From contig JBBTSV010000001.1 in NCBI GenBank assembly GCA_038064595.1, positions 1,915-65,914 of the forward strand: 64,000 bases of DNA, in the 5' to 3' direction. The first letter of the stretch is position 1. Each line of letters starts with the position of its first letter. Positions 7,533 to 55,688 of this stretch are shown in pieces. Made by a program: the position numbers and the translations under genes. Source of the DNA: Patescibacteria group bacterium (GTDB lineage Bacteria > Patescibacteriota > Minisyncoccia > Phycocordibacterales > Phycocordibacteraceae). The notes below the pieces were generated by a model. That model was given only the letters and a program-made list of their open reading frames with translations. It was not told where the DNA came from and searched no databases.

Positions 7533-8462
7533 TCAGGGGAGGGTGTGTGGAGGAGTGGCGTCGCGTTCATCAAACTTGAAACCGCGTGCGACAAGCTCGC
7601 TCCAGAGATAGTTGTACCACAGTCGATATCCTTCACTGCTCGGATGCATTTTGTCTTTGGCATAGTAGCGATCAGGGTTTTCAAAAAATGGATTGGAGGT
7701 GTATTTGTGGATCTTCTCCGTAATAAAAAGCTCGACGAGCGGTAATCCGACCGCATCAGTCGCTCGCGCGAACACGTCGTGCACAATATCAGTACGCCGT
7801 CCGATAACCGAACGGATGAACGCTGGGAAGAAGGGTGCTTGTCCAAGATTTGCGTAAAAAAGTACAACGACGCGTCGATTGCTTTTTGCAATGGCTTGAT
7901 CAAGGAGGCGGCGGAGGTCTCGTTCAAGCGATGTTACACTGGTACGAAACAAAATATCGTTTCCTCCTGTACTTATAACAATCAAATCAAATGTCTGAGA
8001 GTCAGTACGCTCGAGTTGGGTGATGGCATCGCGTACGAGTGATCCATTTACCGCAACGTTGAGAATGGACGTATGAGGGAAATCGCGTCCAAGACGTCCT
8101 GCGATAGTATCTTCTGGCGCATCAGCACCAGTGCCGTACGCAGTACTATCACCAAGGACAAGAATTCGTTTCGGGCCATCACGCTGCGCTGAGTACACGA
8201 CAGGTTTCTTCCACATAAATTGAACCTCATGAAGCAGTGTCCAAATCATGTGGAGTACCTTGAGTGTCACGAGGAGTGCCGTACCTTCTCCAAGTAGGAT
8301 GAGGAATGCTGGGAGGAAGATCTCCACACCGACGGGTCCACCCAAGGAGATTCCATCGACGAGTGACTGTATATTCTCTCTTGTATGAGTGATCGCACCA
8401 CTACCGATACTAACAAAAACATCTCCAACTCGAGAGCCTATCGTGCGAAGAAAATCGGTCAT
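7533..8462 (-). CDS. SGNH/GDSL hydrolase with N-terminal membrane domain
   Basis: LVLGDSTAYG (GDS), GGNDI, and DKMHPSSEGY catalytic blocks. Confidence 0.7.
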   Translation of the reverse strand: MTDFLRTIGSRVGDVFVSIGSGAITHTRENIQSLVDGISLGGPVGVEIFLPAFLILLGEGTALLVTLKVLHMIWTLLHEVQFMWKKPVVYSAQRDGPKRILVLGDSTAYGTGADAPEDTIAGRLGRDFPHTSILNVAVNGSLVRDAITQLERTDSQTFDLIVISTGGNDILFRTSVTSLERDLRRLLDQAIAKSNRRVVVLFYANLGQAPFFPAFIRSVIGRRTDIVHDVFARATDAVGLPLVELFITEKIHKYTSNPFFENPDRYYAKDKMHPSSEGYRLWYNYLWSELVARGFKFDERDATPPHTLP

Positions 8463-9193
8463 GTTAGGAGCGCTCGTATGAGCGTCTCGTGTATCTGACG
8501 ATACCACACTTCATACCCTGCGTCATTTGGATGCATTAAATCACGAGCGAGGAGCTTCTGATCTATAACCGGGTCGTTTTTTTCATGGAAGAGTGATACA
8601 TGCGATACGCCAACCTCGTGCGCAACTTCCTGGTACAATATCTTCATTTGTCTTGAGCGATTGTGATAGAGCGGTAACAGAAAAGGAGGATAGCACAACA
8701 TGAGTCCCGCGTTGTTTGGACTAATAAGCACAATGTTTTTTCCGTACTGTTGACTCCGCGTAAGTATGGTCTTGAGGGAGCGCCGCAGAAGTGCAAGAGG
8801 GGTAAAACAAACAAGGTTCATACCACCAAGCATGATGACAATGAGATCAAATGGAGGGGTGTTTTTCTGAACGCGAGTATCAAGTGCAGTATGCGCGTAG
8901 GAGAGATAGACTCCCGGTTTACTCGCATTTTCAATATGGGCAGTTGGAATCGCAGCAGCAAGTCTCCCAGGGATGGAGTAGCGACCTTCGCTGGCACCTG
9001 TACCGTATCCGGTACTATCACCGATAAAGAGTACGCGCATCGGCGCTTGATCGTTGTGGCGTTCATAAGTGGTAAGCGCCGCACTCAATTCTCGCGAGAT
9101 TCGTAATTGACGGTATACGCGCATAGCTCCACACACGCCGTAGAATATCAGCATTCCGACAACGATACCCACCCCCTGACCGACACCTGTCAT
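8459..9193 (-). CDS. SGNH/GDSL hydrolase (paralog of the gene downstream)
   Basis: LFIGDSTGYG, GGMN, and DLMHPNDAGY blocks. Confidence 0.7.
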   Translation of the reverse strand: MTGVGQGVGIVVGMLIFYGVCGAMRVYRQLRISRELSAALTTYERHNDQAPMRVLFIGDSTGYGTGASEGRYSIPGRLAAAIPTAHIENASKPGVYLSYAHTALDTRVQKNTPPFDLIVIMLGGMNLVCFTPLALLRRSLKTILTRSQQYGKNIVLISPNNAGLMLCYPPFLLPLYHNRSRQMKILYQEVAHEVGVSHVSLFHEKNDPVIDQKLLARDLMHPNDAGYEVWYRQIHETLIRALLT

Positions 9194-9196
9194 GTT

Positions 9197-10759
9197 TTAC
9201 TGATTAGGAATCACTTTATAGTCTTTAGTTTCGTCTACCAGGACCACATCTCCCTCACGCAATCCTGACACTATCTCAACATAGCCATCGACACCGACTG
9301 ATCCGGTTTCGACATGGGTGCGCACAGGCATGTCATTTTGGAGCAGGTTGACCGTGGCGCTTTTACCAGCACCAGCGACGGCAGCGAGGGGGATAGCGAG
9401 TACGGACGGCTTATCAGCAACTTGAATGTGTGCGGATGCGGTGAGACCCGGACGGATATGCGCGTCGAACGGATCGAAGTAGACCGTCACTTTAAAATTA
9501 GGGACACTGTCTTGAGGGGTTGCCGTTGGATCAATGGAGCGCAGAGTGCCCGTAAATGACTCACCCGGGAATGCGTCAAGCATAATGGACACCCTCTGGC
9601 CGACCACTATTTTATTCGAGTGAACCTCTGGAACATACCCCTCAAGCTTTAAGGGTCCCGTAGCGATAAGGGAGAGCACGGTAGCTCCGGCGCCGACTGC
9701 TTCACCAACGTTTGGCTCTATCGAGGCGACGGTACCTGAAAGGGGAGCAACAAGAGTTTGGTCACTCAGCGTATCCTTTAGTTCGGCAACCAATTCACGC
9801 GCATGCGCAACGGCCGCTTCCTGTGCCTGACGCGCTTCGTGTGTTGGACCAGACAGGAGAAGATCGAGCTCGCGCTCTGCGACGGTGACCGCTGCTTGAG
9901 TGCTCCGCACGGCGCTATATGCCTCATCAAGGGTGCGATCAATCCCGGTAAGAGCCGTACGAGCGGTCGTCACCGCACTCTGTGCGGCGGCACTTTGGGT
10001 TGGATCGCCGCTTGCGAGAAAGGTCGTCAAATTATCGAGGATACCTGCGATGACCTGTATGTAGTCGTGCATGTCATCGGTGGCATCGAGTAACGCGTCG
10101 ACGGATCCAGTCTGGAGTGCCGTGATGCGTGATCGCCATGAGATAAGTTGTGGCTGGAGATTACGGCGGGCACTGAGTGTCTGGATACTTGTTTGTTGAT
10201 CGACGATAAGGATGGTGAACGAGGAATGTGTAAAGGACGGGTTCTGAATAAATTGATCAATAGTGACGCGGATGACCGTGTCGGTCATGCTTTGGGCACT
10301 CGCGATCACCTTCAGCAATGCCTTTTGTGCATTGGTAAAGGCAGTCTGGGCATCGGTTACCTGAGCACTGGCTACGGCTATCTGTTCAGGGCGGGTTCCA
10401 CGAAGAAGTTCACGTAATCGTGCGCTCTCCGCATCAAACTGTGCCTGTGCCTGTGCAAGCTGGTCTTTTACCGTCGAGCTCCGTAAGACTATCAGCGGGG
10501 TGGTGGTCGTCACCGAGTCCCCAACGTTCACGAGGACAGCTTCCACAATGCCGTTGTTTTTGAAAGCAAGATCAATCGTTTCGGCAGCTTTTGTTGTTCC
10601 GAACATATCGACTTGCTCGACTATGTGCCGGTAGCTCACGGGTACGGGTGTGAGCACCACTGATTGGGCACCCTGCATTTTTGCATAGCCGTACCATAGA
10701 CCAACGCCGCCGAGGACGACACCCACCACGACGGACACCACGGTCAGGATACGAGTCAT
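9197..10759 (-). CDS. HlyD/MacA-like periplasmic adaptor subunit of an efflux system
   Basis: N-terminal TM, long coiled-coil/alpha-hairpin, beta-barrel C-terminal region; located upstream of a MacB-like ATPase and permease. Confidence 0.75.
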   Translation of the reverse strand: MTRILTVVSVVVGVVLGGVGLWYGYAKMQGAQSVVLTPVPVSYRHIVEQVDMFGTTKAAETIDLAFKNNGIVEAVLVNVGDSVTTTTPLIVLRSSTVKDQLAQAQAQFDAESARLRELLRGTRPEQIAVASAQVTDAQTAFTNAQKALLKVIASAQSMTDTVIRVTIDQFIQNPSFTHSSFTILIVDQQTSIQTLSARRNLQPQLISWRSRITALQTGSVDALLDATDDMHDYIQVIAGILDNLTTFLASGDPTQSAAAQSAVTTARTALTGIDRTLDEAYSAVRSTQAAVTVAERELDLLLSGPTHEARQAQEAAVAHARELVAELKDTLSDQTLVAPLSGTVASIEPNVGEAVGAGATVLSLIATGPLKLEGYVPEVHSNKIVVGQRVSIMLDAFPGESFTGTLRSIDPTATPQDSVPNFKVTVYFDPFDAHIRPGLTASAHIQVADKPSVLAIPLAAVAGAGKSATVNLLQNDMPVRTHVETGSVGVDGYVEIVSGLREGDVVLVDETKDYKVIPNQ

Positions 10760-10788
10760 TATCCTCTATTGTAGAACATATTTTCCGT

Positions 10789-11496
10789 CTAGAGACCCAC
10801 CATTTGCTGAAGCGGGGATTGTGGAATATGGGTGACGTCAACGAGTTGGCCCTGTTTCAACTCGAGCACGCGTGTGGCCATACTAAGCGACTCTCGTTCA
10901 TGGGTCACCATAATAATCGTGGAACCCGCTTTGTGGATAGCTCTAAACATCGAAAGAATTTCAAGGGCGCTGGTAGTGTCCAGGTTGGCCGTCGGCTCAT
11001 CGGCCAATATATACGAGGGATTATGGGCGATTGCACGAGCAATCGAGACGCGTTGTTGTTGTCCACCTGAAAGTTTCGATGGTCGGTATTTGGCATGATC
11101 GCCCAGACCGACGCGGTCGAGTGCAGCACGGGCGAGTTCTTTTGCCTCAGCACGACTCTTTCCTCGCATAATGAGAGGGAGCACGACATTATCGAGAGCA
11201 CTCATCTCAGCCATCAGCCCATAATCTTGAAAGACGTACCCCAAACGGTCTAAGCGCAGATCAGATCGTGCGTTCCTTGAGAGTGTGCTTCCTACGAATC
11301 CATCAATACTGACCACCCCCTCGTTTGGGGTGTCGAGGAGACCCAAGAGGTAGAGCAGCGTTGACTTACCAGAACCGGAGCGGCCGGTGATAATAACAAA
11401 CTCACCCTCTGCGGCTACGAAATCAAGGTGCTCAAACACAATAAGCGAACTCTCGCCCGAAGCGAACTGTTTTTTTAAGTTGCGTGCCTCAAGCAT
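10789..11496 (-). CDS. MacB/LolD-like ABC ATPase
   Basis: GRSGSGKSTLL, LSGGQQQRVSIARA, ILADEPTANLD. Confidence 0.85.
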   Translation of the reverse strand: MLEARNLKKQFASGESSLIVFEHLDFVAAEGEFVIITGRSGSGKSTLLYLLGLLDTPNEGVVSIDGFVGSTLSRNARSDLRLDRLGYVFQDYGLMAEMSALDNVVLPLIMRGKSRAEAKELARAALDRVGLGDHAKYRPSKLSGGQQQRVSIARAIAHNPSYILADEPTANLDTTSALEILSMFRAIHKAGSTIIMVTHERESLSMATRVLELKQGQLVDVTHIPQSPLQQMVGL

Positions 11497-11501
11497 AGGA
11501 G

Positions 11502-12788
11502 TTAGCGGCCGAGAATGGCATCGACGATTTCTTGTCGCATAATCATTCGTGCCGGGACAATGCTTGCGCACATAATCGCTATGTAGAGCACCAACGCTTT
11601 TACCCACGCCTCGGTGATCGATACAGAAAGGATACCATTACTGAAAGGAAAATCGATCGGGTGAGCAACGAAATATGGTTCAATAAGCATAAAATTAAGC
11701 GCAATGCCAATGACTGCGCCCAGTGAGGAAAAGAGCGATGATTGAGCCACATAACCTATCTCGATGCCACCCGGACGGACCCCGATGGCTTGTAGGATGC
11801 CGATAGAACGGCGGTGGGTGACCGTGTTGATAAATACCAAAATAAAGACCGCAATGAATGATATGACCAAGCCCGTACTTCCAAGAATCGTGCCCAACTG
11901 ACCGAATGTTGATGCAAAGTCTTGGAAAAATGACGGTTCGGAGTCACGACCATAGAGTATCAAACCGTTATTCCCTATAGGCGAACGCTTGAGCTGGTCT
12001 CGAATGGTGGGGGCACTCGCTCCAGGAGCAACTCTGACCGCGATCTCGTTGACTCCCCGATTCGTTCGTCCAAGCATAGCGCGAAGTTGAGCATCCACCA
12101 TGTAGGCACTCAAGTTTATTTCCTCCAATTTACTTGCCACGATTCCTTTTACGGTCATTTCTCGCTCAATACCGTTCAGCATGATACGTACTTTGTCTCC
12201 CACCCCAACCTTGGGGATGGGTATGGTACCAGGGAGTGCCGTGAGCGTTTTGTACCGTGCCAACAGGCTCGTACCGATGAGAATCTGGTTGTAATCCGTG
12301 GGACGTAAATACTCACCCTCAACAATGAGGTGAGAGAGCCCGGTCGTGGCATCTTCTGCGGTTGGGTCGATACCAATGAACGTCGAAATAATTACATCGG
12401 GAGTATCTTGTTCAGTGATCTTCTCTGCATAATTTCCCTCGATGATCCCGGTTGTTTTGTAACGCGGAGAAAACGAGGTAATAAGTGGCAGCGTTTTTAA
12501 ATAAGAGATTGTGTCGGGAGAGTTCAGGATGGCGTTTTTTCGATCGTGCTGGACGATCATAATGTCCCCCGTATAGTGATCTCGTCGCTCTTGGCGTAGC
12601 CCATCAACAATACCGACCAGCAGCCCACTGACCATGAGGAGGTTGAGATACGTCAGAATCATCACGACCACAATAAGGATTGACGTACCCTTATTCGCCA
12701 GCATCTGACGGTTTGCAAGGAAAAATCCAACACGGATCGTGTTCCAGGTGCGCCTGAATGAGGAGGGAGGCATACTACGAGGATCCAT
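11502..12788 (-). CDS. MacB/FtsX-like ABC permease with a large periplasmic domain
   Basis: FtsX-family C-terminal TM bundle; -10 TATACT lies 7 nt upstream of the ATG at 12788. Confidence 0.75.
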   Translation of the reverse strand: MDPRSMPPSSFRRTWNTIRVGFFLANRQMLANKGTSILIVVVMILTYLNLLMVSGLLVGIVDGLRQERRDHYTGDIMIVQHDRKNAILNSPDTISYLKTLPLITSFSPRYKTTGIIEGNYAEKITEQDTPDVIISTFIGIDPTAEDATTGLSHLIVEGEYLRPTDYNQILIGTSLLARYKTLTALPGTIPIPKVGVGDKVRIMLNGIEREMTVKGIVASKLEEINLSAYMVDAQLRAMLGRTNRGVNEIAVRVAPGASAPTIRDQLKRSPIGNNGLILYGRDSEPSFFQDFASTFGQLGTILGSTGLVISFIAVFILVFINTVTHRRSIGILQAIGVRPGGIEIGYVAQSSLFSSLGAVIGIALNFMLIEPYFVAHPIDFPFSNGILSVSITEAWVKALVLYIAIMCASIVPARMIMRQEIVDAILGR

Positions 12789-12857
12789 GCACTTTAGTAT
12801 AGCGCAAGGTGCTCCCTTAATAGTGAGGCACAATTCTAACTGGTATACTACAGAGCG

Positions 12858-14081
12858 ATGACCTCTCCTTCCCGTTATCGACCCCGCATTCTCTTTGTAA
12901 GTGAAGCAGTCACGCTCGCCCATCTTGCACGCCCGCTTGCGCTTGCTTCAGCACTCGCTGAAGATGAATACGATGTCCATCTTGCCGTTGGGGATGCGTT
13001 TGAGACAGTCGTGAAGCAGAGTGCGATCACACGACACACGATTACCAACCTTTCGCGTACTGAACTCATCAAACGTGTGCGACGTGGTGCGCCCCTCTTT
13101 GACCGCGCGACTCTTGAACGAGAGGTGGTTGAAGATCAGGCGCTCATCAGAGCCCTCCAACCAGATCTCATCATCGGAGACTTCCGGCTTTCGCTTGGGG
13201 TAAGCGCCCGCATCTGTCGGGTCCCGTACGCCGGCATCTCCAATGCATACTGGAGCCCATCAGTAGCCTCCTGGTACGAGGTACCGCCGACTTTGTTTAC
13301 CCGTGTGTGTCCGCTCCCGCTCGCCCAATTCTTTTTTGATCATGCACAGACGCACATCTTTGCGCACCACACTCGACCCTACAACCAGGTACGTGCGCAC
13401 TATGGTCTTCCCCCGATCCCGCCAACGCTTACACACCTGTATACCGACGCTGACCACATGCTCTACGCTGATCCCCCTGACTTATTCCGAGGGCCACAGT
13501 ATTTAGCAAATGAACATTTTCTAGGGTTCATGCCGTGGTCGCTCGAAGCCCCGCACCCCTCAACGATAGAGTTTCCCAATACACACGAACCGCTCTGTTA
13601 CGTCGCACTCGGCAGCAGCGGTGCGCACCATCTAACCGAGAAAATTATTCAAGCATTCGGTGCTCTGCCGGTACGCGCGCTCATCGGGCGCGACGCCCAT
13701 CTCGTTGACGTCCCCCTCTCGCCTAACGTGCGTTTGACGCCGCTTTTGTCGGCAGCAACGATAGCAGAAAAAGCTGATCTCTTGATTATCAATGGCGGAA
13801 GTACGATGACGAGTCATGCGATAACTGCTGGGAAGCCAATAATCGGTATATCGGACAACATTGACGCATTGCTCAACATGCAGCGGATCGTAGCAAGTGG
13901 TATCGGCCTCTCCTTTCGTACCGATCGCTTTACGTCTCGAATGTTTGCAGATGGAGTGATGCGGATATTAACTGACCCCACCTTTCGCACAGCCGCACAG
14001 CTCCTTCAACGCTCTGCAGCGCAGCACGACTTTCGGAGAAATATCAGGTCATTCATTTCTTCAGTGACTGGTATACAATAA
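12858..14081 (+). CDS. GT-B glycosyltransferase, family 1 / MGT-like (UDP-sugar dependent)
   Basis: C-terminal signature INGGSTMTSHAITAGKPIIGISDNIDALLNMQRIVASGIG; -10 TATACT 8 nt upstream of the ATG. Confidence 0.8.
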   Translation: MTSPSRYRPRILFVSEAVTLAHLARPLALASALAEDEYDVHLAVGDAFETVVKQSAITRHTITNLSRTELIKRVRRGAPLFDRATLEREVVEDQALIRALQPDLIIGDFRLSLGVSARICRVPYAGISNAYWSPSVASWYEVPPTLFTRVCPLPLAQFFFDHAQTHIFAHHTRPYNQVRAHYGLPPIPPTLTHLYTDADHMLYADPPDLFRGPQYLANEHFLGFMPWSLEAPHPSTIEFPNTHEPLCYVALGSSGAHHLTEKIIQAFGALPVRALIGRDAHLVDVPLSPNVRLTPLLSAATIAEKADLLIINGGSTMTSHAITAGKPIIGISDNIDALLNMQRIVASGIGLSFRTDRFTSRMFADGVMRILTDPTFRTAAQLLQRSAAQHDFRRNIRSFISSVTGIQ

Positions 14082-14089
14082 AGGTACGC

Positions 14090-14758
14090 ATGAAAACCTC
14101 ACCTCTCGACCTTGTGTTCAACGGAGGTGCTTTCCTCCTCATTCTCGGGGGGGTGAGCGTGATTGTGCTCTGGTACGTTGCCCCCTTCACGACTGCGCTC
14201 ACGGGGGTATACCATCCCGTGTTTGATGTCGTGGTCGCGTCCGTCTTGTTTGGGGTAGGCGCAGGTATCCTGGTACGCACCACGCTTCTATTTCTCCCAC
14301 TTCAGCAAGGAACCTTTCGTATGGATCAACCGATTTTTACCTACTGGAAATTTCTCACCCTCACCTATTACACCGGGAAAGCTGCGCTCTCTCCAGTAAC
14401 GGTACTTCCACTTCGCCCGTGGGTGTTACGACTGTTTGGGGCACGTATTGGTAGCGACGTTGCGATTGATGGTGTGGTCGACACCCCGTTCCTCACCACC
14501 ATTGGCGATCGCACGCTTGTGGGAAACGGGTCACATCTTGCGGGGAACGTGACCCAGAACGGAGCACTGATTATCGGGCGTGTACAGATTGGATCAGACG
14601 TTACTATTTGTATGAATGCGGTCGTATTGCCGAATACGATCATCGGTGACCGTGCGGTCGTTGACATTGGCGCGGTGGTCATGCCCGGCTCGGTGATACC
14701 GGCAGGAGAGACCTGGCGGGGGAATCCGGCACGCAAGTGGCTCGGCGCGAGCGTCTAA
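14090..14758 (+). CDS. hexapeptide-repeat (LbH) acetyl/acyltransferase with N-terminal TM segments
   Basis: Imperfect tandem hexapeptide repeats (IGSDVAIDG.., IGDRTLVGNG.., IGSDVTIC..). Confidence 0.75.
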   Translation: MKTSPLDLVFNGGAFLLILGGVSVIVLWYVAPFTTALTGVYHPVFDVVVASVLFGVGAGILVRTTLLFLPLQQGTFRMDQPIFTYWKFLTLTYYTGKAALSPVTVLPLRPWVLRLFGARIGSDVAIDGVVDTPFLTTIGDRTLVGNGSHLAGNVTQNGALIIGRVQIGSDVTICMNAVVLPNTIIGDRAVVDIGAVVMPGSVIPAGETWRGNPARKWLGASV

Positions 14759-14762
14759 CACT

Positions 14763-15014
14763 ATGGATACGCGAGACAGAGTTCGCACCGTGTTTGACGA
14801 TACGCTCCAGCTCGGTGGACGCACCGCCGCGTGGGAGGAGACGACCCCGCTCCTCGGGAGCTTGGCCGAACTTGATTCGCTGACTATCTTTACGGTCATC
14901 GCTGCGCTCGAGAAAGAATTCGCTATCGCGTTTGATGATGGCGATATCAATGCCGAGGTGCTCGCGACACTCGGTTCACTCACCGCGTTTATCGACGAGA
15001 AACAGGCGACATAA
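14763..15014 (+). CDS. acyl carrier protein (phosphopantetheine site LDSL)
   Basis: 83 aa, acidic, LAELDSLTIFTVI helix-II serine. Confidence 0.65.
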   Translation: MDTRDRVRTVFDDTLQLGGRTAAWEETTPLLGSLAELDSLTIFTVIAALEKEFAIAFDDGDINAEVLATLGSLTAFIDEKQAT

Positions 15015-15020
15015 TCTGCC

Positions 15021-16601
15021 ATGATCATCCTCGTTCACGATCTCATAGCATCTGCAGCAGAGCGGTGGGGGGAACGGGTTGCGTTGCGGTACCAGAATCA
15101 AGAACTCACCTACCGGGCGCTCGCAGACGCGGTCGCCGCGAGCGCGTCCGGCTACAGGGCTCTCGGGCTTGCGCGCGGCGATCGTGTTGCGGTGTATACC
15201 GAGAAACGTCTCGAGACCGTCATCGCGCTCTTTGGCGCCACACATGCTGGTGGGGTCATGGTGCCTGTTAATCCGGTACTCAAGGCCAATCAGGTCGCAC
15301 ATATTGTACGCGACAGCACCGCACGCATACTTGTGACTACGAGTGAGCGGGTCGCGAGCCTCTCCGCCGTGCTTGATACCTGCCCAAGCCTCACTCACGT
15401 GATCTGTATCGGTGAAGCGCCCATTGACCACTCGGCGCGATTCTCGTGGGTTGGGTGGTCGTCTCTTCTGGAACAGGTGCCGTGTGAAGGTCACCGCACT
15501 ATTGATAGCGATATCGCCGCGCTCCTCTATACCTCCGGGAGTACGGGGAGACCCAAGGGCGTGATCATACCGCATCGTGTGCTCTGTGCGGGCGCGGCAA
15601 GTGTCGCAACGTATCTCGAGCTGACCGCCAAGGAGCGTGTGCTCGCCGTTCTCCCACTCTCTTTTGATTATGGTCTCAATCAACTGACGGCGACGTGGTA
15701 TGCAGGCGGCTGCGTGGTACTCATGAACCATCTTCTCGTAAAGGACATTATTTCTATGGTGGAGAAGGAGAAGATTACCGGTCTTGCGGCGGTGCCCGCA
15801 CTCTGGATCCAGCTCGCGCAGCTCTCATGGCCGCCCGCGTGTCGTGCCCACCTACGCTATATCACGAACTCTGGTGGGCATATGCCCAATGAAACGCTTG
15901 CGCGTTTACGTGCCGCGCTCCCGACCACCACTCCATACCTGATGTACGGCCTCACCGAGAGCTTCCGCTCGACCTACCTGCCACCGGCCGATCTTGATAC
16001 GCGCCCCGACTCTATCGGAAAAGCGATCCCGAATGCAGAGGTTTTGGTGGTACGCCCAGACGGCACTCCCTGCGCGCCGCATGAGCCGGGAGAGCTCGTG
16101 CATCGCGGCACACTGGTCGCACTTGGATACTGGAACGACCCGGAGAAGACCAAGGAGCGTTTTCGTCCGCTTCCGGGGCAGCGCCCCGAATTGCCTCTCG
16201 CCGAGCTTTGTGTGTGGTCCGGCGATACGGTTACTATGGATGAGGACGGGTACCTCTATTATGTTGGGCGCACTGATGAAATGATTAAGACGTCGGGGTA
16301 TCGAGTGAGCCCGACAGAGATCGAGGAGGTACTCTATGCCACGAAGCTCGTTGGGGAGGTCGCTGTTTTCGGCGTCCCGCATCCGGAGCTCGGGCAGGCA
16401 ATCGCGGTAGTCGCGACCCCCGCCTTGGGCACTGATCTCTCGCCCGAGACGCTGCTCACTGTCTGTCGACAGCGCTTCCCGCGCTATATGGTCCCAGCTC
16501 ATCTCGAGGTTGTGCACGGACCGCTTCCGGTGAACGCCAATGGGAAGTTCGACCGCCGTCTGCTTGCCGAAGAACGGAAACACGTATGCATCACATCTTA
16601 A
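15021..16601 (+). CDS. AMP-dependent synthetase/ligase (acyl-CoA or acyl-ACP ligase)
   Basis: LYTSGSTGRPKGV AMP-binding motif, 526 aa. Confidence 0.85.
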   Translation: MIILVHDLIASAAERWGERVALRYQNQELTYRALADAVAASASGYRALGLARGDRVAVYTEKRLETVIALFGATHAGGVMVPVNPVLKANQVAHIVRDSTARILVTTSERVASLSAVLDTCPSLTHVICIGEAPIDHSARFSWVGWSSLLEQVPCEGHRTIDSDIAALLYTSGSTGRPKGVIIPHRVLCAGAASVATYLELTAKERVLAVLPLSFDYGLNQLTATWYAGGCVVLMNHLLVKDIISMVEKEKITGLAAVPALWIQLAQLSWPPACRAHLRYITNSGGHMPNETLARLRAALPTTTPYLMYGLTESFRSTYLPPADLDTRPDSIGKAIPNAEVLVVRPDGTPCAPHEPGELVHRGTLVALGYWNDPEKTKERFRPLPGQRPELPLAELCVWSGDTVTMDEDGYLYYVGRTDEMIKTSGYRVSPTEIEEVLYATKLVGEVAVFGVPHPELGQAIAVVATPALGTDLSPETLLTVCRQRFPRYMVPAHLEVVHGPLPVNANGKFDRRLLAEERKHVCITS

Positions 16602-17800
16602 ACTCTTTTTCTACCACCAACCACGAGCTCGTCATCGGCGGTGTGCCGCTCACAACGCTCGTGGCGCGTGTTGGCTCCACCCCTTTGTATGTCTATGATC
16701 GAGAGCGGATCACTGACCGGGTTGCACTTCTGCGGAAACACCTCTCGCCGATGCTCAACGTCTCCTATGCCATGAAGGCAAACCCCATGCCCGCCGTGCT
16801 CGCGCACCTTGCGTCACAGGTTGATGGCTTTGACGTCTCCTCGCTTACCGAGATGACGCGGGCGCTCGATACAGGCATGCCAGCTACCGCGATAAGCTTT
16901 TCTGGACCGGGGAAAACTGAAAAAGAAATCACCTGTGCCGTGGCGGCGGGCGTACTCCTCCATGTGGAGTCGCTCCGCGAGCTGCGAGCAGTTATCGCTG
17001 CGGGGATAGCACTCGGACAGACACCACGCATTGCACTCCGGATCAATCCGGATTTTGCGGTGAAGGGGGTAAAGATAAAAATGGGCGGGATGACCCAGTT
17101 TGGTGTTGATCCGGAGACCGTCCCCGAGATGCTCACGATGCTCACGGCAGCCGGTCTTACCTGTGAAGGATTCCACATCTTCTGTGGCTCGCAGAACCTG
17201 CATGCCGACCTCGCAGTTACTGTGGTGAAGGACTCTCTTGCGCTCCTGTATCGTCTCTCTGCGCAGCTCCCCGCGCCGCCGCGTTCGCTCGTCCTCGGTG
17301 GCGGGTTCGGCATCCCGTATTTCCCGGGTGACGAGCCACTTGATATAGCTGCCGTGGGGAAGGGGCTCCAGCCTCTCCTGACTGAAGCGAAAGCGCATTT
17401 TCCCGAGGCAGTCATTGGTATGGAGCTTGGGCGCTATCTGGTGGGCGAAGCCGGGGTATATGTCGCGCGGGTGATAGACACAAAAACGGTACGGGAAAAA
17501 ACCTTTGTCGTCACCGATGGCGGACTCCATCACCACCTACCCGCCTCGGGGAACTTTGGGCAGTTTATCCGCCGCAACTACCCCGTCGCCATCGGTAACC
17601 GCATGAACACCCCAGCCACTGAGATCGTCTCAATCGTGGGGCCACTGTGCACCACCCTCGATCTTCTGGCCGACTCGGTGCAGCTGCCGCACGTGAGTAT
17701 TGGCGATCTGGTGGTCGTCTTTCAGTCGGGAGCGTACGGCCTCACTGCAAGCCCCCTCGACTTTCTCAGTCACCCACACCCCGTCGAAGTACTGGTCTAG
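16586..17800 (+). CDS. PLP-dependent decarboxylase (Orn/DAP/Arg decarboxylase fold type III)
   Basis: N-terminal TIM-barrel with AMKAN (PLP lysine) and a C-terminal beta-sandwich; overlaps the ligase stop. Confidence 0.8.
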   Translation: MHHILNSFSTTNHELVIGGVPLTTLVARVGSTPLYVYDRERITDRVALLRKHLSPMLNVSYAMKANPMPAVLAHLASQVDGFDVSSLTEMTRALDTGMPATAISFSGPGKTEKEITCAVAAGVLLHVESLRELRAVIAAGIALGQTPRIALRINPDFAVKGVKIKMGGMTQFGVDPETVPEMLTMLTAAGLTCEGFHIFCGSQNLHADLAVTVVKDSLALLYRLSAQLPAPPRSLVLGGGFGIPYFPGDEPLDIAAVGKGLQPLLTEAKAHFPEAVIGMELGRYLVGEAGVYVARVIDTKTVREKTFVVTDGGLHHHLPASGNFGQFIRRNYPVAIGNRMNTPATEIVSIVGPLCTTLDLLADSVQLPHVSIGDLVVVFQSGAYGLTASPLDFLSHPHPVEVLV

Positions 17801-17822
17801 AAGGCGGTATACTATACGTACT

Positions 17823-18683
17823 ATGTCCGTTGATGCTTGGTCATACCGTGAAGCGTTTGATCGCAACAGAAAGCTCATTAGTGACGATCATCAAGAAAAA
17901 CTCGAGCAGGCGCGCGTCGCGATCGCGGGGCTCGGCGGGGTCGGCGGGATCCACGCCACCACGCTTGCGCGGCTTGGGATAGGGCACTTCAGCATCGCTG
18001 ACCCCGATACGTTTGAGCTCTCCAATATCAATCGGCAACAAGGGGCGAACACCACCACCCTTAACATGCCCAAGAACATCACCCTCGAGCGGCTCATAAA
18101 AGAGATTAACCCCACAGCCGAGGTGCGCGTGAGCGGCGCCCTGACCGAAGAAAATATCGACGCCTTTCTCGAGGGAGCAACGCTTGCCGTCGACGGTATC
18201 GATTTCTTCACTATAAGTGCCCGCCGTCTCCTCTACCGCACATGCCGCGCGCGCGGGATCCCGGTCCTGGGCGCCGGACCAATCGGCTTTGGGTCCTCGA
18301 TGCTCAACTTCAGCCCCACTGGCATGAGCTTCGACGACTACATGAACATCACCGATGCCTTGCCGGAGCGTGAGCAGATACTCCACTTCGCGCTTGGTAT
18401 CGCACCGCGCATGCTCCAACGTTCCTACTTTGCGCCCACGACTATCGACTTCGCGGGTCATCACGCCCCCTCCTCCGTGCTGGGGACCCTCGCGTGTGCC
18501 AACTTCGTTGGTTGTGAGGCGTACAAGATTATCGTCGGACTCCCGTATGAGAGTGCACCGGTTTCCTGGCACTTCGACCCCTACGTGCGAAAGCTCCGAC
18601 GCTGCAACCTATGGGGAGGGAATCGTAACCCCATTCAGCGCTTCAAAAAATGGTATTTTATACATATCCTTAAATTGAAATGA
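17823..18683 (+). CDS. ThiF/MoeB/HesA-family E1-like adenylyltransferase
   Basis: VAIAGLGGVGG nucleotide-binding loop, NINRQ motif. Confidence 0.75.
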   Translation: MSVDAWSYREAFDRNRKLISDDHQEKLEQARVAIAGLGGVGGIHATTLARLGIGHFSIADPDTFELSNINRQQGANTTTLNMPKNITLERLIKEINPTAEVRVSGALTEENIDAFLEGATLAVDGIDFFTISARRLLYRTCRARGIPVLGAGPIGFGSSMLNFSPTGMSFDDYMNITDALPEREQILHFALGIAPRMLQRSYFAPTTIDFAGHHAPSSVLGTLACANFVGCEAYKIIVGLPYESAPVSWHFDPYVRKLRRCNLWGGNRNPIQRFKKWYFIHILKLK

Positions 18684-19324
18684 CCGCAACGCTCACTAAG
18701 AGGGTCGGCATACGCTCGCTCGACACCATATTCCGCACGACCCAGCTCATTACCTACCCCTTCAACTGGTGGCTCAGTCGGCGTATCAAGCTGACGGCAC
18801 GGGTGCCCTATACCTTCAGCGTACCGCGCGGGACCCTGGTGCTTGCAAATCACCGGAGTCTCTTTGATCCGTTTTTGATCGCGTATCACTTGGGGATGGA
18901 GAATTGGCTCCACACGATCCCCACGCGCTATCCGGCGACTCCTGACTATACGCTTCGCCCCATCCTTGGTTCGGTGATACGTGCGCTCGGCGCCTACAAC
19001 ATCGGTAGGACACCGATGGAGCGCGCCAAGAAGCTCGTGTTTACCCGTGACCTGCTTGATCGCGGATGTACGGTCCTCCTTTTTCCAGAAGGGAAGATTG
19101 TAGATAACGGGGAAGTGGTCGCCGAGTTTCAGCGGGGTATCAAGATGCTTTTCGCCCAGGACTACCCGATCGTCCTCGTCCGCCTCTCGGGCTTCAACAC
19201 CCACTCATTTCTGCGTCCCCATACCGTCGCCGACGCCCGTATTGAGTACAGCCCCGTTATCCGAGGGACTCCCGAGATGAAGCTCGAGCAACTCCGCACG
19301 TTTTACGGCTTACGCGATGTATGA
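18680..19324 (+). CDS. PlsC-family (lysophospholipid/OlsA-like) acyltransferase
   Basis: HXXXXD motif NHRSLFD and FPEG block. Confidence 0.75.
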   Translation: MTATLTKRVGIRSLDTIFRTTQLITYPFNWWLSRRIKLTARVPYTFSVPRGTLVLANHRSLFDPFLIAYHLGMENWLHTIPTRYPATPDYTLRPILGSVIRALGAYNIGRTPMERAKKLVFTRDLLDRGCTVLLFPEGKIVDNGEVVAEFQRGIKMLFAQDYPIVLVRLSGFNTHSFLRPHTVADARIEYSPVIRGTPEMKLEQLRTFYGLRDV

Positions 19325-19926
19325 TCTGGGATCTGGTGCGCAGTAGCGAGACGACGCGCGCGGCGCTCTCTACCGCCGGACATCAGGCAGCCACGCGCGC
19401 GGCACAGCGCGCCCTGCAGATCAGCGACCCGCGTGGAGAGCACCACACCATTGCTATCGAGAAAGATGTACTTGGGAAGCCGGAGGCGCGTGTGCTGGGG
19501 AGTGCCCAGTCAGTCGCGGTGTCCATATCACACGCAGCTCCGTTTGTCTGTGCGGTCGCGGATACGGCGCCGGTACTGCTCGGTACCGACATCGAGCGTA
19601 TCCGCCCGTGCACCACTGCCGTTTGGGAGGCCTGTCTCACCCCCGCGGAAAAAGCGTTCATCGCGGCCGCGCCGCGCCGCGAGCGCGAGATGCTCCAGAT
19701 TCGCGCGTGGTCGCTCAAGGAGGCGGTACTGAAGGCATTTGGGGTGGGGTTGCGCGTGCATCCGCGCAATGTTGATGTGACCAATGCGCTTGGGGCGACC
19801 ACCTCGACCGTGCGTATTGGATGGCGGGGGGTGTGGCATACTGCAACGGTAGAGTGGATGCACCTTAACCCCACCTATGTCGCGGTGGCGGTTGCATTTC
19901 CTTTTTCAGCTCGTACACTAGAGTGA
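19321..19926 (+). CDS. 4'-phosphopantetheinyl transferase (Sfp/EntD type)
   Basis: GTDIE and WSLKEAVLKA motifs. Confidence 0.75.
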   Translation: MIWDLVRSSETTRAALSTAGHQAATRAAQRALQISDPRGEHHTIAIEKDVLGKPEARVLGSAQSVAVSISHAAPFVCAVADTAPVLLGTDIERIRPCTTAVWEACLTPAEKAFIAAAPRREREMLQIRAWSLKEAVLKAFGVGLRVHPRNVDVTNALGATTSTVRIGWRGVWHTATVEWMHLNPTYVAVAVAFPFSARTLE

Positions 19927-20198
19927 TGGATGTTCGCGATTTTGTGCTCACGGCTATTGCAGAAACGCTTGACCTTCCGCTGGCCGTGGTGCGTGACGAC
20001 AGTAAGCTCGTCGACTTGGCCGAAGACTCGATTAAGCTCTTTGAGCTCCTAATCCGGCTCGAGAACCTTTTTTCATATCGCGTAAGTTATGAGGCGATTG
20101 TGCATATTGAGACAGTGGGCGATGTCATCGCCTACATAGAGACGCTCCCGATCGACCGCGGCGTGCTCCAGGCTACTACCCAGAAGAAAGCCGCATGA
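19923..20198 (+). CDS. acyl carrier protein (second copy, DSI serine)
   Basis: 91 aa, LAEDSIKLFELL. Confidence 0.6.
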   Translation: MMDVRDFVLTAIAETLDLPLAVVRDDSKLVDLAEDSIKLFELLIRLENLFSYRVSYEAIVHIETVGDVIAYIETLPIDRGVLQATTQKKAA

Positions 20199-20809
20199 GC
20201 GGGAACCCGCGTTGTGTGGTGCTCACCCTTCCCGCAGAAAAGCAGGCGGCCCAAGATATCGTCCGGCGTGTCTACGCGGCCCAAGGTTATGACTTGAGCG
20301 AGGGGGTGTTTGTCCGCTTCCTGCGCACCCCGAATGCTGTGGTGTGGGGGCTCTTCGAAGAGGATGTCCTCTTTGGCACCATCTCCATTATCCCTGACAG
20401 TGAGGCAGGACTCCCGATGGACTCGCTCTATGCTGAAGAGCTCGCCCCCTTTCGAGCCGAGGGGAAGAAAATAGCAGAAGTCGTCCAGTTTGCGATCGAT
20501 CATACGCTCAAAAAACCATCACCCTTTGAAGCGGTCCCGCTTCTTATCACCGTCCTCTCCTATGCACGCACCCAAAAAATTGACACCATCTGCATCTCAA
20601 TCCACCCAAAGCACAGCCAGTTCTACCACATGCTCGGTTTTGAAAAAATAGGTGACCTCAAGCAGTATCAGGCAGTCGCGGCACCAGCCGTTGCGTATGC
20701 GCTGCCGCTTGTCGCGTGGGAAACTAATCCCTTTTTTGGTAACTTTCTGCGCAACGCGATTCGCCCTGATGGTGGGGTCTCTAGTGGAGAAGAGCGAGCT
20801 GCAATATAA
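20195..20809 (+). CDS. N-acyl amino acid synthase (FeeM/OlsB-like GNAT-fold N-acyltransferase)
   Basis: About 200-aa protein with the layout of FeeM-family N-acyl amino acid synthases; terminal gene of the ACP/ligase/PPTase operon. Confidence 0.55.
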   Translation: MSGNPRCVVLTLPAEKQAAQDIVRRVYAAQGYDLSEGVFVRFLRTPNAVVWGLFEEDVLFGTISIIPDSEAGLPMDSLYAEELAPFRAEGKKIAEVVQFAIDHTLKKPSPFEAVPLLITVLSYARTQKIDTICISIHPKHSQFYHMLGFEKIGDLKQYQAVAAPAVAYALPLVAWETNPFFGNFLRNAIRPDGGVSSGEERAAI

Positions 20810-21104
20810 GCGCGAGAGCGATCATACCCCCAGGGATTATATAATCGAGCACAAAGGAGAGTCTTTTTTTATCCGGACTGAAGCCAGCCCTACGTAAGTA
20901 GTAATAGTAGAAGCCTTCATTCTCCTTGCCAAATTGCCCCTGGGTGATGAGGCAGCCCTTGGCGTAGTAGAGCTGGAGGTGGTAGAGCACGACGGTGAGG
21001 ATAACGATACGCCAGTCGAGGTAGAAGGGGGAGGTGTACCACAGAGCGAGGAGGACGATGTGGAGCACGAGAAAGAAGGAGTAGCGGAAGCGCGACAGGG
21101 ACAT
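20781..21104 (-). CDS. small membrane protein, hypothetical
   Basis: Two or three TM helices; starts 5 nt after the prmC stop. Confidence 0.4.
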   Translation of the reverse strand: MSLSRFRYSFFLVLHIVLLALWYTSPFYLDWRIVILTVVLYHLQLYYAKGCLITQGQFGKENEGFYYYYLRRAGFSPDKKRLSFVLDYIIPGGMIALALILQLALLH

Positions 21105-21109
21105 GCGGA

Positions 21110-22027
21110 TTAGTGTAAAACCATCACTCCCTCGTGACCATAGGGATCATCCCAGAAGGTAGACTGCCAGTCGGTGGTCGCGAGGATCTTCTTCAGCTCC
21201 TCAACCTGCGTCATGTCGCATTCGACATAGAGCGTGCCGCGCTTGGTGAGATATTGTTTGCCCTTTTCGATCAGCTCTCGGTGGTGGCCAAAGCCGTCCG
21301 TGGAGCCGAAGAAGGCGATACGTGGCTCGTAGTGCATCTCGGGATCCATGTCAGCTTCACCTTTTGGGTCAACGTAGGGTGGGTTCGCGCAGAGCACGTC
21401 AAAGGTGCCGGTAATTTTCTCAAGGCTATTACCGGCGAGGAGCGTCGTCCGCGACGGATCGATTGAGTTTATCTCAAGAGATTTCTTAATCTGCGGGAGC
21501 AGTGCCGCGTCGATCTCATTAAAGGTGCAGGTCGCCTCGGGCAGGTGTTTCAAAAGCGCGATGCCGATATTGCCGGCGCCAGCGTAGAGATCGGCCGTTG
21601 TGACTGGCCCCGCATCCTTCCACTCATCAATGACCCGCTTCACCCACTGTGCTGTCTCGTCACGAGGAACCATCGGGCGATAGGAGAGGTCAATCGTTGC
21701 GCCTAAGAAATCGGTATGACCGAGCACATACTCCCACGGCTCGTGTGCTTCAAGGCGCGCACAGTCTGCGCGATAGGCGTTACCCTCGACACCCGCATAT
21801 TTCTCGGTAAGTATTTTCTGCTTCGCTTGGGCGAGAGAGAGGTACACAGTGACGTCAGTATAACGCGGATGAAACCATCGGCAGAGTACGGACGTTTTAG
21901 TGGGTATGTTCGAGAAAGTCACACTCCGCATATTCGCCCTCTGTCTCGTGAGTTGCGCGAGCTTGGTCCTTTTCTCGATGTGGGTATATAAACCAGATTC
22001 AGAGGCATACTTTAAGCTCGCGGCCAC
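21110..22027 (-). CDS. prmC: release-factor glutamine N5-methyltransferase (HemK/PrmC)
   Basis: NPPY motif (CANPPYVDP), SAM-binding GxGxG region. Confidence 0.8.
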   Translation of the reverse strand: MAASLKYASESGLYTHIEKRTKLAQLTRQRANMRSVTFSNIPTKTSVLCRWFHPRYTDVTVYLSLAQAKQKILTEKYAGVEGNAYRADCARLEAHEPWEYVLGHTDFLGATIDLSYRPMVPRDETAQWVKRVIDEWKDAGPVTTADLYAGAGNIGIALLKHLPEATCTFNEIDAALLPQIKKSLEINSIDPSRTTLLAGNSLEKITGTFDVLCANPPYVDPKGEADMDPEMHYEPRIAFFGSTDGFGHHRELIEKGKQYLTKRGTLYVECDMTQVEELKKILATTDWQSTFWDDPYGHEGVMVLH

Positions 22028-31182: not shown

Positions 31183-31300
31183 CTTGTATCAAGAGGCAGT
31201 GAGAGAATTGGCTCGATGACCTGCCGGCAACACGGAGCACCAGCTCGCAGTGTGCCTCTTCCAACCCGCTCGGGAAAGATACCACTATCTTTTTTCGTGC
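31183..31300 (+). promoter_or_regulatory. SAM-I-clan riboswitch aptamer with intrinsic terminator (AAAGATA-CCAC-TATCTTT plus T-run) in the metK leader
   Basis: UAUCAAGAG..GGC..GAGAGA..GGCUCGAUGA..CCGGCAAC matches the SAM-I conserved core; P1 AAGAGGCA/UGCCUCUU. Confidence 0.6.
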
Positions 31301-31327
31301 TTTATAAAAAGTAAGCTTACACTCTGT

Positions 31328-32266
31328 ATGATCAGAACTGCTGAGTTTGTGTCTCCGGGTCACCCGGATAAGCGGTGCGACTTTATTGCTGACTCTATCC
31401 TCGACGCTTACCTCGCAGGCGATGCGGGGAGCCGGGTCGCGATTGAGGTGATGGGTGGCCACAACCTCGTCACGATTAATGGTGAAGTCACATCGGGGGT
31501 AAAGCCCGACATCATCGCGCTCGTGAAGGGGATCGTCGGTGAGGAGTATAAGGTGATTGAGAACGTTGCGCTCCAGAGTAAGGAGATCGGGCGCGGCGTC
31601 GACACAGGGGGCGCGGGCGACCAGGGGATCATGAAGGGCTATGCGACCAGTGAGACCGAGACTCTGATGCCACTTGAGTATGAGCTTGCGCGCAATCTCT
31701 GTCAGAAGGTCTATGAAAAGTATCCCTATGACGGCAAGACGCAGGTGACGGTTGAAGACGGTGAGGTGACCACGGTTGTCGTGAGCTTTCAGAACACAAA
31801 GAATGCCGAGCTCCTCCCCTTGGTACAGAGCGTGATCAACGCAAAGGAGTATCTCCTCAATCCTGCCGGCGAGTGGGTTCAGGGTGGCTTTGACGCCGAC
31901 ACCGGCCTCTCGGGGAGAAAACTTATTGTGGATAATTATGGGCCGGAGGTGGCTATTGGCGGGGGCTCATTCTCGGGCAAGGATTACACCAAGGTTGATC
32001 GCTCGGGTGCGTACATGGCGCGTCGCGTCGCGGTCGAGCTCCTCAAAGAGCGCAGAGCGAGGGCAGTGCATACCAAGCTCGCGTATGCGATCGGCAAGGC
32101 TGAGGCGGTGATGGCAGTGGCCGTTGTCGATGGGGTCGAGGAGCCGATCACCGGCTATGACCTCACGCCGCGCGGCATCCGCGCGAATCTTGCGCTCGAC
32201 ACCGTCCGCTACACCGACACCTGTACCTGGGGACACTTTGGGCGAGGCTTCACCTGGGACGCCTAG
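31328..32266 (+). CDS. metK: S-adenosylmethionine synthetase
   Basis: GHPDKRCD, GAGDQGIM, GGGSFSGKDYTKVDRSGAY. Confidence 0.85.
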   Translation: MIRTAEFVSPGHPDKRCDFIADSILDAYLAGDAGSRVAIEVMGGHNLVTINGEVTSGVKPDIIALVKGIVGEEYKVIENVALQSKEIGRGVDTGGAGDQGIMKGYATSETETLMPLEYELARNLCQKVYEKYPYDGKTQVTVEDGEVTTVVVSFQNTKNAELLPLVQSVINAKEYLLNPAGEWVQGGFDADTGLSGRKLIVDNYGPEVAIGGGSFSGKDYTKVDRSGAYMARRVAVELLKERRARAVHTKLAYAIGKAEAVMAVAVVDGVEEPITGYDLTPRGIRANLALDTVRYTDTCTWGHFGRGFTWDA

Positions 32267-39290: not shown

Positions 39291-39297
39291 AGATTGT

Positions 39298-55188: not shown

Positions 55189-55314
55189 CTCGCTACCCCT
55201 CCTTTGCGTTTTGCGGGAGGGGAAGCCATTTCTATACGAGAAAAAATGGAAACACCCGCGCAGGAGCGTGGGTGTTTCCATTTAGTAGACCGGGTCGGTA
55301 AGCCGAATTCTGTT

Positions 55315-55597: not shown

Positions 55598-55688
55598 TGC
55601 ATGTTCGGACTTTCCTCCCCAATACCCCAAAAGGGCAGTGGAGCGATCGTCTAACCCGGTCTGTTTCCATTATACCACACCTGCATTT

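Follow-up and report, generated by a model that had tools for sequence, protein, structure and literature searches.

Patescibacteria have very small genomes and are thought to be poor in secondary metabolites and dependent on hosts for their lipids. What do such bacteria make with an operon of ten genes that encodes a glycosyltransferase, a hexapeptide acyltransferase, two acyl carrier proteins (ACPs), an adenylating ligase, a decarboxylase, a ThiF-like enzyme, a PlsC-type acyltransferase, a 4'-phosphopantetheinyl transferase (PPTase) and a synthase of N-acyl amino acids (NAS)? The operon lies at positions 12858-20809 of a 64,000-nucleotide stretch of DNA from a Patescibacteria group bacterium (contig JBBTSV010000001.1; the whole stretch is hereafter called the window), and an earlier note, made from the sequence alone, had taken it for one biosynthetic unit following the logic of ornithine lipids. 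Our analysis identifies it as an N-acyl amino acid cluster of the oxazolone type from which the desaturase has been lost and to which a carrier-protein/decarboxylase module of the exosortase-A type has been added. With moderate confidence, we read it as a composite cluster whose product is an N-acyl amino acid lipid that is decorated and exported.

The existence of ten genes on one strand was confirmed by the open reading frames (ORFs), all co-directional on the plus strand, and by independent gene calls on other contigs. Five independent contigs from metagenomes carry the identical sequence, their sources being the Hainich groundwater sample ERZ1292625 and several Logan runs; two of the five span the operon and carry the same ten genes in their own gene calls, while the other three are shorter and end inside it. 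Most junctions had been described as overlapping or coupled by 4 nucleotides (nt). This holds for five of the nine, which are overlaps (16, 4, 4, 4 and 4 nt), and for one gap of 4 nt; the three remaining junctions are short gaps of 8, 6 and 22 nt. The largest gap (17801-17822) separates the decarboxylase gene from the ThiF gene, which starts at the ATG at 17823, outside the decarboxylase gene. This gap is the seam joining two modules of different ancestry. Domains were assigned by Pfam and NCBIfam profile searches of the ORFs (the cutoffs quoted are the curated model cutoffs), and all domain calls made previously were upheld by these searches (Table 1).

Judged by its sequence, the terminal ORF is a genuine FeeM-type NAS with predicted acyl-ACP-dependent activity. 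Besides its match to PF21926, it shares 55% identity over 177 residues (E 7e-54) with the sequence of the FeeM crystal structure 2G0B, an N-acyl tyrosine synthase from the fee cluster (FeeM/FeeL) of environmental DNA (eDNA), and it also matches the N-terminus of NF011425. The search for its family returned 2172 cluster representatives at E<=1e-3, and Glu95 is invariant in the family alignment; a catalytic role of the conserved Glu has been described for FeeM-type enzymes (PMC4897644). As in the fee cluster, a small ACP is encoded next to the synthase, and the presence of an own ACP and PPTase alongside it is borne out by matches to PF00550 and PF01648. The proposed likeness of the terminal protein to OlsB did not hold, as it matched neither the OlsB domain PF13444/Acetyltransf_5 (Pfam, E<=1e-3) nor TIGR03694 (NCBIfam).

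The ThiF-like enzyme had been considered foreign to all described clusters of this kind. This view is refuted by the acyl-oxazolone pathways published from 2020 to 2025 (OxzAB, TyzABC, TrzAS), which combine an NAS, a ThiF-type ATP-dependent cyclase and a desaturase of the nitroreductase superfamily, a flavin-dependent oxidase (FDO) (bioRxiv 10.1101/2020.06.11.147165; PMC10404671; PMC12856293). When the FDO of TrzS is inactivated, the enzyme sets free the intermediate in its cyclised, saturated form (PMC12856293). The window ThiF is a stand-alone member of the oxazolone-synthetase clade and matches the ThiF half of NF011424 with 265 bits and the ThiF part of NF011425 with 181 bits. The FDO of locus L006, from a Minisyncoccota metagenome-assembled genome (MAG), matches the C-terminal halves of NF011424 and NF005901 (the Rv1355c family, corresponding to TrzS; positions 377-718) and part of NF011425. 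Because the window ThiF, the window FeeM-like protein and the L006 FDO match separate parts of these models, NF011424 describes ThiF-FDO fusions and NF011425 FeeM-ThiF-FDO fusions. The Gly-rich ATP motif and D124/D127 are invariant in the ThiF family alignment, and the ThiF of eDNA clone CSLC2 is 58% identical to that of the window. In a PDB fold search, the AlphaFold2 model (predicted local distance difference test, pLDDT, 92.7) showed a generic ThiF/MoeB fold only. Its nearest solved structure is AclA of Tenacibaculum discolor with substrate (9egb/9egc, released 2025; 21% identity, TM-score 0.75), which may be another small-molecule ThiF enzyme.

Based on homology and conserved synteny, we regard the core formed by ThiF, PlsC, PPTase, ACP2 and FeeM, along with the MacB-type exporter, its adaptor and the two secreted GDSL esterases, as an ACP-dependent relative of the acyl-oxazolone pathway. 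The resemblance to Oxz (Pseudoalteromonas rubra), Tyz and Trz (Mycobacterium tuberculosis) lies in the ThiF, which corresponds to one half of the ThiF-FDO fusion models, in the FeeM-type NAS located 1.5 kb downstream in the same operon, and in the FDO carried by close relatives of the window cluster; published oxzB loci are also sometimes clustered with glycosyltransferases. In contrast to these systems, the 64-kb window encodes no FDO, the acyl group probably comes from a dedicated acyl-ACP and not from acyl-CoA, as the cluster has an ACP and a PPTase of its own, and the cluster adds a PlsC-type acyltransferase, a MacB exporter, GDSL esterases and an ACP1-ligase-decarboxylase triad, in a patescibacterial host.

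Comparison of gene neighbourhoods separates this core from the first five genes. In L006, ThiF-PlsC-PPTase-ACP-FeeM face a divergent group consisting of the FDO, a MacB permease, an ABC ATPase, a membrane-fusion adaptor and two GDSL esterases, and all cluster genes except the FDO have syntenic window orthologs (40-72% identity). The core, which many Patescibacteria share and which usually has two GDSL esterases next to it, was also found in a MAG of Kaiserbacteria (L103), on groundwater contigs from Rifle (L101/L102) and on JGI metagenome contigs (L090-L096). Core and exporter are syntenic in L006, L090, L091, L093, L101 and L103, all of which hold an FDO in the slot between exporter and ThiF, and the PlsC gene follows ThiF in all Patescibacteria-type loci (55-66% identity). 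Paceibacterota, Saccharibacteria, Moraniibacteriota and a small number of further MAGs (L008-L012, L017, L019) hold versions that are rearranged or have no MacB exporter in range; cores without FDO also occur in L008, L009, L010, L017 and L096.

The content of the slot is what varies. It is occupied by the FDO alone in L006, L090 and L103, by an FDO, a FAD_binding_4 oxidase, two unknown genes, a small membrane protein and a VTT/DedA protein in L091, L093 and L101, and is empty in L008 and L096. In the window, it holds the GT1-family glycosyltransferase, the LbH (hexapeptide) acyltransferase and the triad of ACP1, ligase and decarboxylase, but no FDO: tblastn with the L006 FDO as query gave no match in the 64 kb. 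The closest ThiF relatives (73-76% identity; L091:1338-7401 and L101:1580-7624) carry a different tailoring set on the same core, and their two unknown proteins, of 529 and 215 amino acids (aa), have no family match.

In a census of 81 loci holding ThiF homologs, partner genes were counted within 10 kb. An FDO, fused or adjacent, accompanies ThiF in 61/81 loci and a FeeM-like gene in 36/81; the set of PlsC, PPTase and ACP2 was found in 7-8, GT1 in 13 and an LbH protein of 222 aa in five (four of them strong), whereas neither an ACP1-type carrier nor a TIGR03099-type decarboxylase was present in any (0/81 each). Among the approximately 95 loci examined in total, no other joined the triad to a ThiF/FeeM module, and none had the exact gene set of the window. 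The idea of a self-contained lipid or lipo-amino-acid cluster stands; that of a single origin does not, since the neighbourhood comparison shows that the operon was put together from a conserved core and an insert specific to the lineage and is not a single ancestral unit. A ThiF homolog (47% identity) was found in a MAG labelled Nanoarchaeota (L013:7536-12869) with an ANL ligase 3.8 kb away; neither an FDO nor a FeeM-like gene was seen within range, and either the contig was binned wrongly or this may be one more variant.

Within the insert, the ACP1-ligase-decarboxylase triad is the genuinely foreign element. Its three proteins are 49, 64 and 58% identical, respectively, to the copies in the proteobacterial exosortase-A cassette of locus L088, and among the nearest 119 ligase homologs (57-66% identity) every one with a taxon name is proteobacterial. 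The ligase had been interpreted as a plain acyl activator. Instead, it is of the exosortase-A type, and its closest PDB matches are adenylation (A) domains of nonribosomal peptide synthetases (NRPS; LgrA A domain) and the stand-alone enzyme 3wvn/3wv4, which we take to be VinN; the ligase presumably resembles VinN-type stand-alone adenylation enzymes. Motifs A3, A5, A8 and A10 are present, as is A4 in the form SFDYG, conserved as FD[YA]G in 115/120 homologs. The Asp in A4 of adenylation domains binds the amino group of the substrate. The ligase is thus probably amino-acid-activating rather than a plain fatty-acyl activator, to judge from its motifs and nearest relatives.

The decarboxylase, too, looks less like a supplier of a free amine. 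Its best PDB match is BtrK, the L-glutamyl-[BtrI ACP] decarboxylase of butirosin biosynthesis (226.6 bits vs 159.5 for the best diaminopimelate (DAP) decarboxylase), which places it nearer to an enzyme acting on an ACP-bound amino acid. In vicenistatin biosynthesis, VinL/VinN/VinO likewise decarboxylate a carrier-tethered amino acid, as do BtrI/BtrJ/BtrK. The window triad shares with these systems a stand-alone carrier adjoining the loading enzyme; however, BtrJ is an ATP-grasp enzyme while the window enzyme is of the ANL type, and polyketide and aminoglycoside genes are absent. By analogy, the simplest reading of the triad would be that ACP1 receives an acidic or diamino-dicarboxylic amino acid, whose decarboxylation on the carrier yields an omega-aminoacyl thioester.

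The exosortase-A cassette itself resembles the triad in its ligase and decarboxylase, both above the curated cutoffs in the window, in the adjacent ACP and in gene order. In canonical form (L088:6870-14374 and, in Allochromatium vinosum, L089:7915-12834), it comprises an ACP, TIGR03101, TIGR03100, ligase TIGR03098 and decarboxylase TIGR03099, and it lies in exopolysaccharide loci with no ThiF or FeeM nearby; the two alpha/beta hydrolases of L088 were confirmed as TIGR03100/03101 members. In L088, a DltB-like MBOAT protein (179 bits, below the cutoff) follows. Based on this MBOAT, the BtrK-like decarboxylase and the Asp in A4 of the ligase, the cassette reads as Dlt-like, that is, it would load an amino acid, decarboxylate it and transfer it to an extracellular polymer. 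The window differs in that its triad forms part of a lipid cluster and belongs to another phylum, and in that TIGR03100/03101 hydrolases, a DltB-like MBOAT, exosortase, PEP-CTERM and polysaccharide genes were not seen among the window ORFs scanned. A literature search revealed no functional study of the exosortase-A ligase and decarboxylase (TIGR03098/TIGR03099) genes, and no publication on such a Dlt-like role of the cassette.

The two other insert genes recur with oxazolone-type genes elsewhere. GT1 homologs with 33-38% identity lie near ThiF-FDO in the 13 census loci, LbH homologs of the same length (222 aa) follow ThiF-FDO in L072 and L058, and in Betaproteobacteria both GT1 and the membrane LbH protein are recurrent neighbours of ThiF-FDO. 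The L072 locus of Pseudoduganella has ThiF-FDO-LbH opposite a GT1, and in Thauera terpenica 58Eu (L081:6692-19342) an Acetyltransf_5 NAS and two MacB permeases face ThiF-FDO, after which come a PEP-CTERM protein and, at a greater distance, a GT1; a sulfotransferase and a large TPR protein also belong to this neighbourhood. As the PEP-CTERM protein stands among the genes flanking ThiF-FDO in L081, the betaproteobacterial oxazolone-type module is itself embedded in a PEP-CTERM/exosortase neighbourhood. A metagenome scan with the LbH protein alone gave 157 pattern matches, of which none was confirmed.

The functional unit is larger than the ten genes. It extends to the minus-strand genes at 7533-12773, because the core is syntenic with orthologs of the exporter and esterase genes in relatives. 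Probably, the small membrane protein encoded downstream on the minus strand is also part of it: homologs (68-76% identity) are found inside the cluster of L091-L094, and L101 and L102 have a 103-aa ORF at the same position, a likeness by position only. The start of the ABC ATPase gene was taken from the contig gene calls. In Patescibacteria loci, the two tandem GDSL/SGNH esterases stay with the core even if there is no exporter (L008, L096), and lipid scavenging, product maturation or DltD-like transfer are possible roles.

Table 1. Position, strand and supporting matches of the cluster genes in the 64-kb window.
Feature	Position	Strand	Evidence
GDSL/SGNH esterase b, N-terminal hydrophobic segment	7533..8462	-	PF13472 78 bits; syntenic orthologs 51-57% in L006, L090, L096, L008
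GDSL/SGNH esterase a, N-terminal hydrophobic segment	8459..9193	-	PF13472 55 bits; syntenic orthologs 40-48%
Membrane-fusion (HlyD/MacA-type) adaptor of exporter	9197..10759	-	TIGR01730 135 bits; L006 ortholog 50%
ABC ATPase, MacB/LolD type	10789..11496	-	LolD, MacB, DevA models E 1e-54 to 1e-65; 72% identity to L006
MacB-type permease (MacB_PCD + FtsX), divergent from operon	11502..12773	-	PF12704 + PF02687; 60-64% to L006, L090, L091, L093 orthologs
GT1-family glycosyltransferase (MGT/OleD/EryCIII-like)	12858..14081	+	PF06722 (EryCIII-like_C) 51 bits; PDB neighbours UGT, OleD, CalG1
Membrane-anchored LbH (hexapeptide) acyltransferase, two N-terminal transmembrane helices + LbH domain	14090..14758	+	PF00132
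ACP1, stand-alone carrier protein (DSL serine at residue 39)	14763..15014	+	PF00550 24 bits (weak)
ANL adenylating enzyme, exosortase-A-associated type, probably amino-acid-activating	15021..16601	+	TIGR03098 753 bits (cutoff 592); 60-66% identity to proteobacterial homologs
Pyridoxal phosphate (PLP) decarboxylase, BtrK-like, fold type III, PLP lysine in YAMKANP	16586..17800	+	TIGR03099 545 bits (cutoff 478)
ThiF-family ATP-dependent adenylating/cyclising enzyme, oxazolone-synthetase clade, stand-alone form	17823..18683	+	NF006077 324 bits (cutoff 266); PF00899 132 bits
PlsC/LPLAT-family acyltransferase	18680..19324	+	PF01553 55 bits; NHRSLFD and FPEGK motifs
Sfp-type PPTase	19321..19926	+	PF01648 55 bits; kept in core of relatives
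ACP2, carrier protein paired with FeeM-type synthase	19923..20198	+	PF00550 32 bits; EDSI serine; core-conserved, 51-60% identity
FeeM-type N-acyl amino acid synthase	20195..20809	+	PF21926 122.6 bits (cutoff 27)
Small membrane protein, 107 aa, probable accessory part	20781..21104	-	no Pfam match; hydrophobic segments at both ends

The most likely product of this cluster is an exported, glycosylated, azlactone-derived N-acyl amino acid lipid extended by an omega-amino acyl unit. In the proposed route, the PPTase would prime both ACPs, and the FeeM-type synthase would move a fatty acyl group from acyl-ACP2 onto an amino acid, which is probably aromatic given the 55% identity to the N-acyl-tyrosine synthase FeeM. 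ThiF would then adenylate the free carboxylate and close a 5(4H)-oxazolone, whose ring is expected to stay saturated because the FDO is absent here and in view of the precedent of TrzS with its dead FDO. A saturated azlactone is a reactive, activated acyl donor. For a second unit, the ligase would adenylate an acidic or diamino-dicarboxylic amino acid and load it on ACP1, where the BtrK-like decarboxylase would strip the alpha-carboxyl group to give omega-aminoacyl-S-ACP1. [quoted passage not shown]

Several points weigh against this route. Next to the observed family assignments, the conserved core and exporter, the absence of the FDO from the window and the unique gene combination, all chemical steps from N-acylation by FeeM to export by MacB are ones that we infer. 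An FDO could be encoded outside the 64-kb window, which would turn the route into the ordinary oxazolone pathway with extra decoration, and the two modules may share a transcript but no function. The organism may lack fatty-acid synthesis, and neither the core nor the scanned ORFs of the window showed a gene for an acyl-ACP synthetase or a fatty-acid synthase that would load ACP2. The best NCBIfam match of the LbH protein, TIGR02353 (the terminal domain of Pls/PosA NRPSs), reached 79 bits and remained far below its cutoff of 423. A scan of 12400-21300 for promoters and terminators gave counts at the level of shuffled sequence, that is, of chance, and was uninformative. Finally, a compositional test for recent transfer of the operon or insert gave no signal; GC content at third codon positions (GC3) is 0.54-0.71 in the operon and 0.63-0.78 in the housekeeping genes.

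Of the alternatives, an aminolipid of the ornithine-lipid type survives best, although we consider it unlikely. Here, an OlsB-like and an OlsA-like step would produce a diacyl (acyloxyacyl) amino lipid, for which the decarboxylase would provide a free amine as head group and the ligase would activate fatty acids, with glycosyltransferase and LbH protein decorating the head group. N-acyl transfer followed by O-acyl transfer is established in aminolipid synthesis (PMC11631085). The operon shares this two-step acylation logic with OlsB/OlsA: its FeeM-type N-acyltransferase and its PlsC-type enzyme, assigned at the superfamily level only and with its HX4D motif intact, occur jointly in every Patescibacteria-type locus, and this group of organisms needs a source of membrane lipids. 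However, the N-acyltransferase is of the FeeM family and lacks the PF13444 and TIGR03694 matches, and it is constantly paired with a ThiF cyclase of the oxazolone clade, for which Ols-type pathways have no use. A dedicated MacB exporter combined with a variable tailoring slot is typical of a secreted metabolite, and Ols systems have neither this exporter nor the ThiF partner. The BtrK-like nature of the decarboxylase and the amino-acid-type motifs of the ligase also speak against this alternative.

Rather unlikely, too, is the assumption of two independent pathways on one transcript, with glycosyltransferase, LbH, ACP1, ligase and decarboxylase serving a Dlt-like aminoacylation or decoration of a surface glycan or exopolysaccharide, a task that the triad may also have in exosortase-A loci, and the genes from ThiF to FeeM a separate N-acyl amino acid or oxazolone signal. 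The 22-nt seam between the modules and the membrane anchoring of the LbH protein, similar to that of a Pls/PosA terminal-domain unit, would fit such a division, as would the proteobacterial triads, which occur in exopolysaccharide loci together with TIGR03100/TIGR03101 hydrolases, and in L088 with the DltB-like MBOAT, away from any ThiF or FeeM. Yet the exosortase, PEP-CTERM, MBOAT and polysaccharide synthesis genes were not seen among the window ORFs scanned, GT1 enzymes normally act on small lipophilic acceptors, and in other loci GT1 and LbH accompany ThiF-FDO although the triad is absent. Moreover, the insert fills exactly the tailoring slot of the core, in place of the FDO.

A more far-reaching version of the composite cluster can be formulated, which we consider quite unlikely at present. 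In it, ThiF would act as a small-molecule "E1" whose activated N-acyl amino acid (adenylate or saturated azlactone), rather than being the final product, is joined to the omega-aminoacyl unit that the BtrK-like decarboxylase makes on ACP1, giving a glycosylated lipodipeptide-like lipid without an NRPS condensation domain in a reduced-genome member of the Patescibacteria; by extension, the proteobacterial exosortase-A cassette would be a Dlt-like system that places a decarboxylated amino acid onto an extracellular polymer. That ThiF is instead a classical E1, which adenylates a ThiS/MoaD-type sulfur carrier or some other protein so that sulfur can be transferred or a conjugate formed, is suggested by the fold and ATP-binding motifs it shares with ThiF, MoeB and E1 enzymes but is hardly credible, as no plausible small GG-terminated partner ORF was found in the window, neither an invariant Cys nor a rhodanese domain is present in the alignment of 20 family members, and the family is fused to FDO and FeeM-like domains in NF011424/NF011425 and adjacent to them in most genomes.

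Regarding the genomic setting, NCBI lists the operon proteins under a MAG of a Patescibacteria group bacterium. Outside the cluster, the window consists of housekeeping genes (prfB, ftsEX, pyrG, metK, bipA, ftsH, recG, RNR, murJ, lepA, RNase P and transfer-messenger RNA (tmRNA)), and BipA, FtsH and SmpB are 87.5, 85 and 79% identical, respectively, to those of the Minisyncoccota MAG carrying L006. Due to these surroundings and the L006-like BipA, FtsH and SmpB, the operon is chromosomal in a groundwater bacterium of the candidate phyla radiation (Patescibacteria, Minisyncoccota-like). No fatty-acid synthase, exosortase or polysaccharide genes were seen among the window ORFs scanned. When 7533-20809 of the window is compared with L006:3524-13135, cluster orthologs are only 40-72% identical (FeeM 45%, PPTase 45%) versus 79-87% for housekeeping proteins, so divergence or exchange proceeds much faster in the cluster than in the genome backbone.

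An Rfam scan of the whole window found no RNA element in or adjoining the operon; the matches elsewhere were RNase P, tmRNA, four tRNAs and one S-adenosylmethionine (SAM) riboswitch. The riboswitch (S box, 56 bits; 31183-31285) lies directly upstream of metK (31250-32266), RNase P RNA at 55283-55662, and tmRNA at 39294-39702, adjoining smpB. The prfB ORF (1176-2051) matches the release factor 2 (RF2) profile only from position 111, with 343 bits, below the cutoff of 370; its N-terminal part is missing, owing to either a frameshift or upstream encoding.

While the oxazolone logic of NAS and ThiF was already known, the combination of the triad with ThiF and FeeM, in the absence of an FDO, is new among the loci examined. 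A literature search for N-acyl amino acid synthases in Patescibacteria returned nothing. The replacement of the desaturase by a carrier-protein/decarboxylase module represents a natural experiment on whether ThiF-activated N-acyl amino acids serve as building blocks or as end products, and the BtrK-like and A-domain-like features provide a testable biochemical hypothesis for the TIGR03098/TIGR03099 genes. For the Patescibacteria, a conserved cluster for an exported N-acyl amino acid/oxazolone-type metabolite, equipped with its own ACP and PPTase, constitutes a metabolite lead, and the molecule may act at the cell surface or in the interaction with the host.

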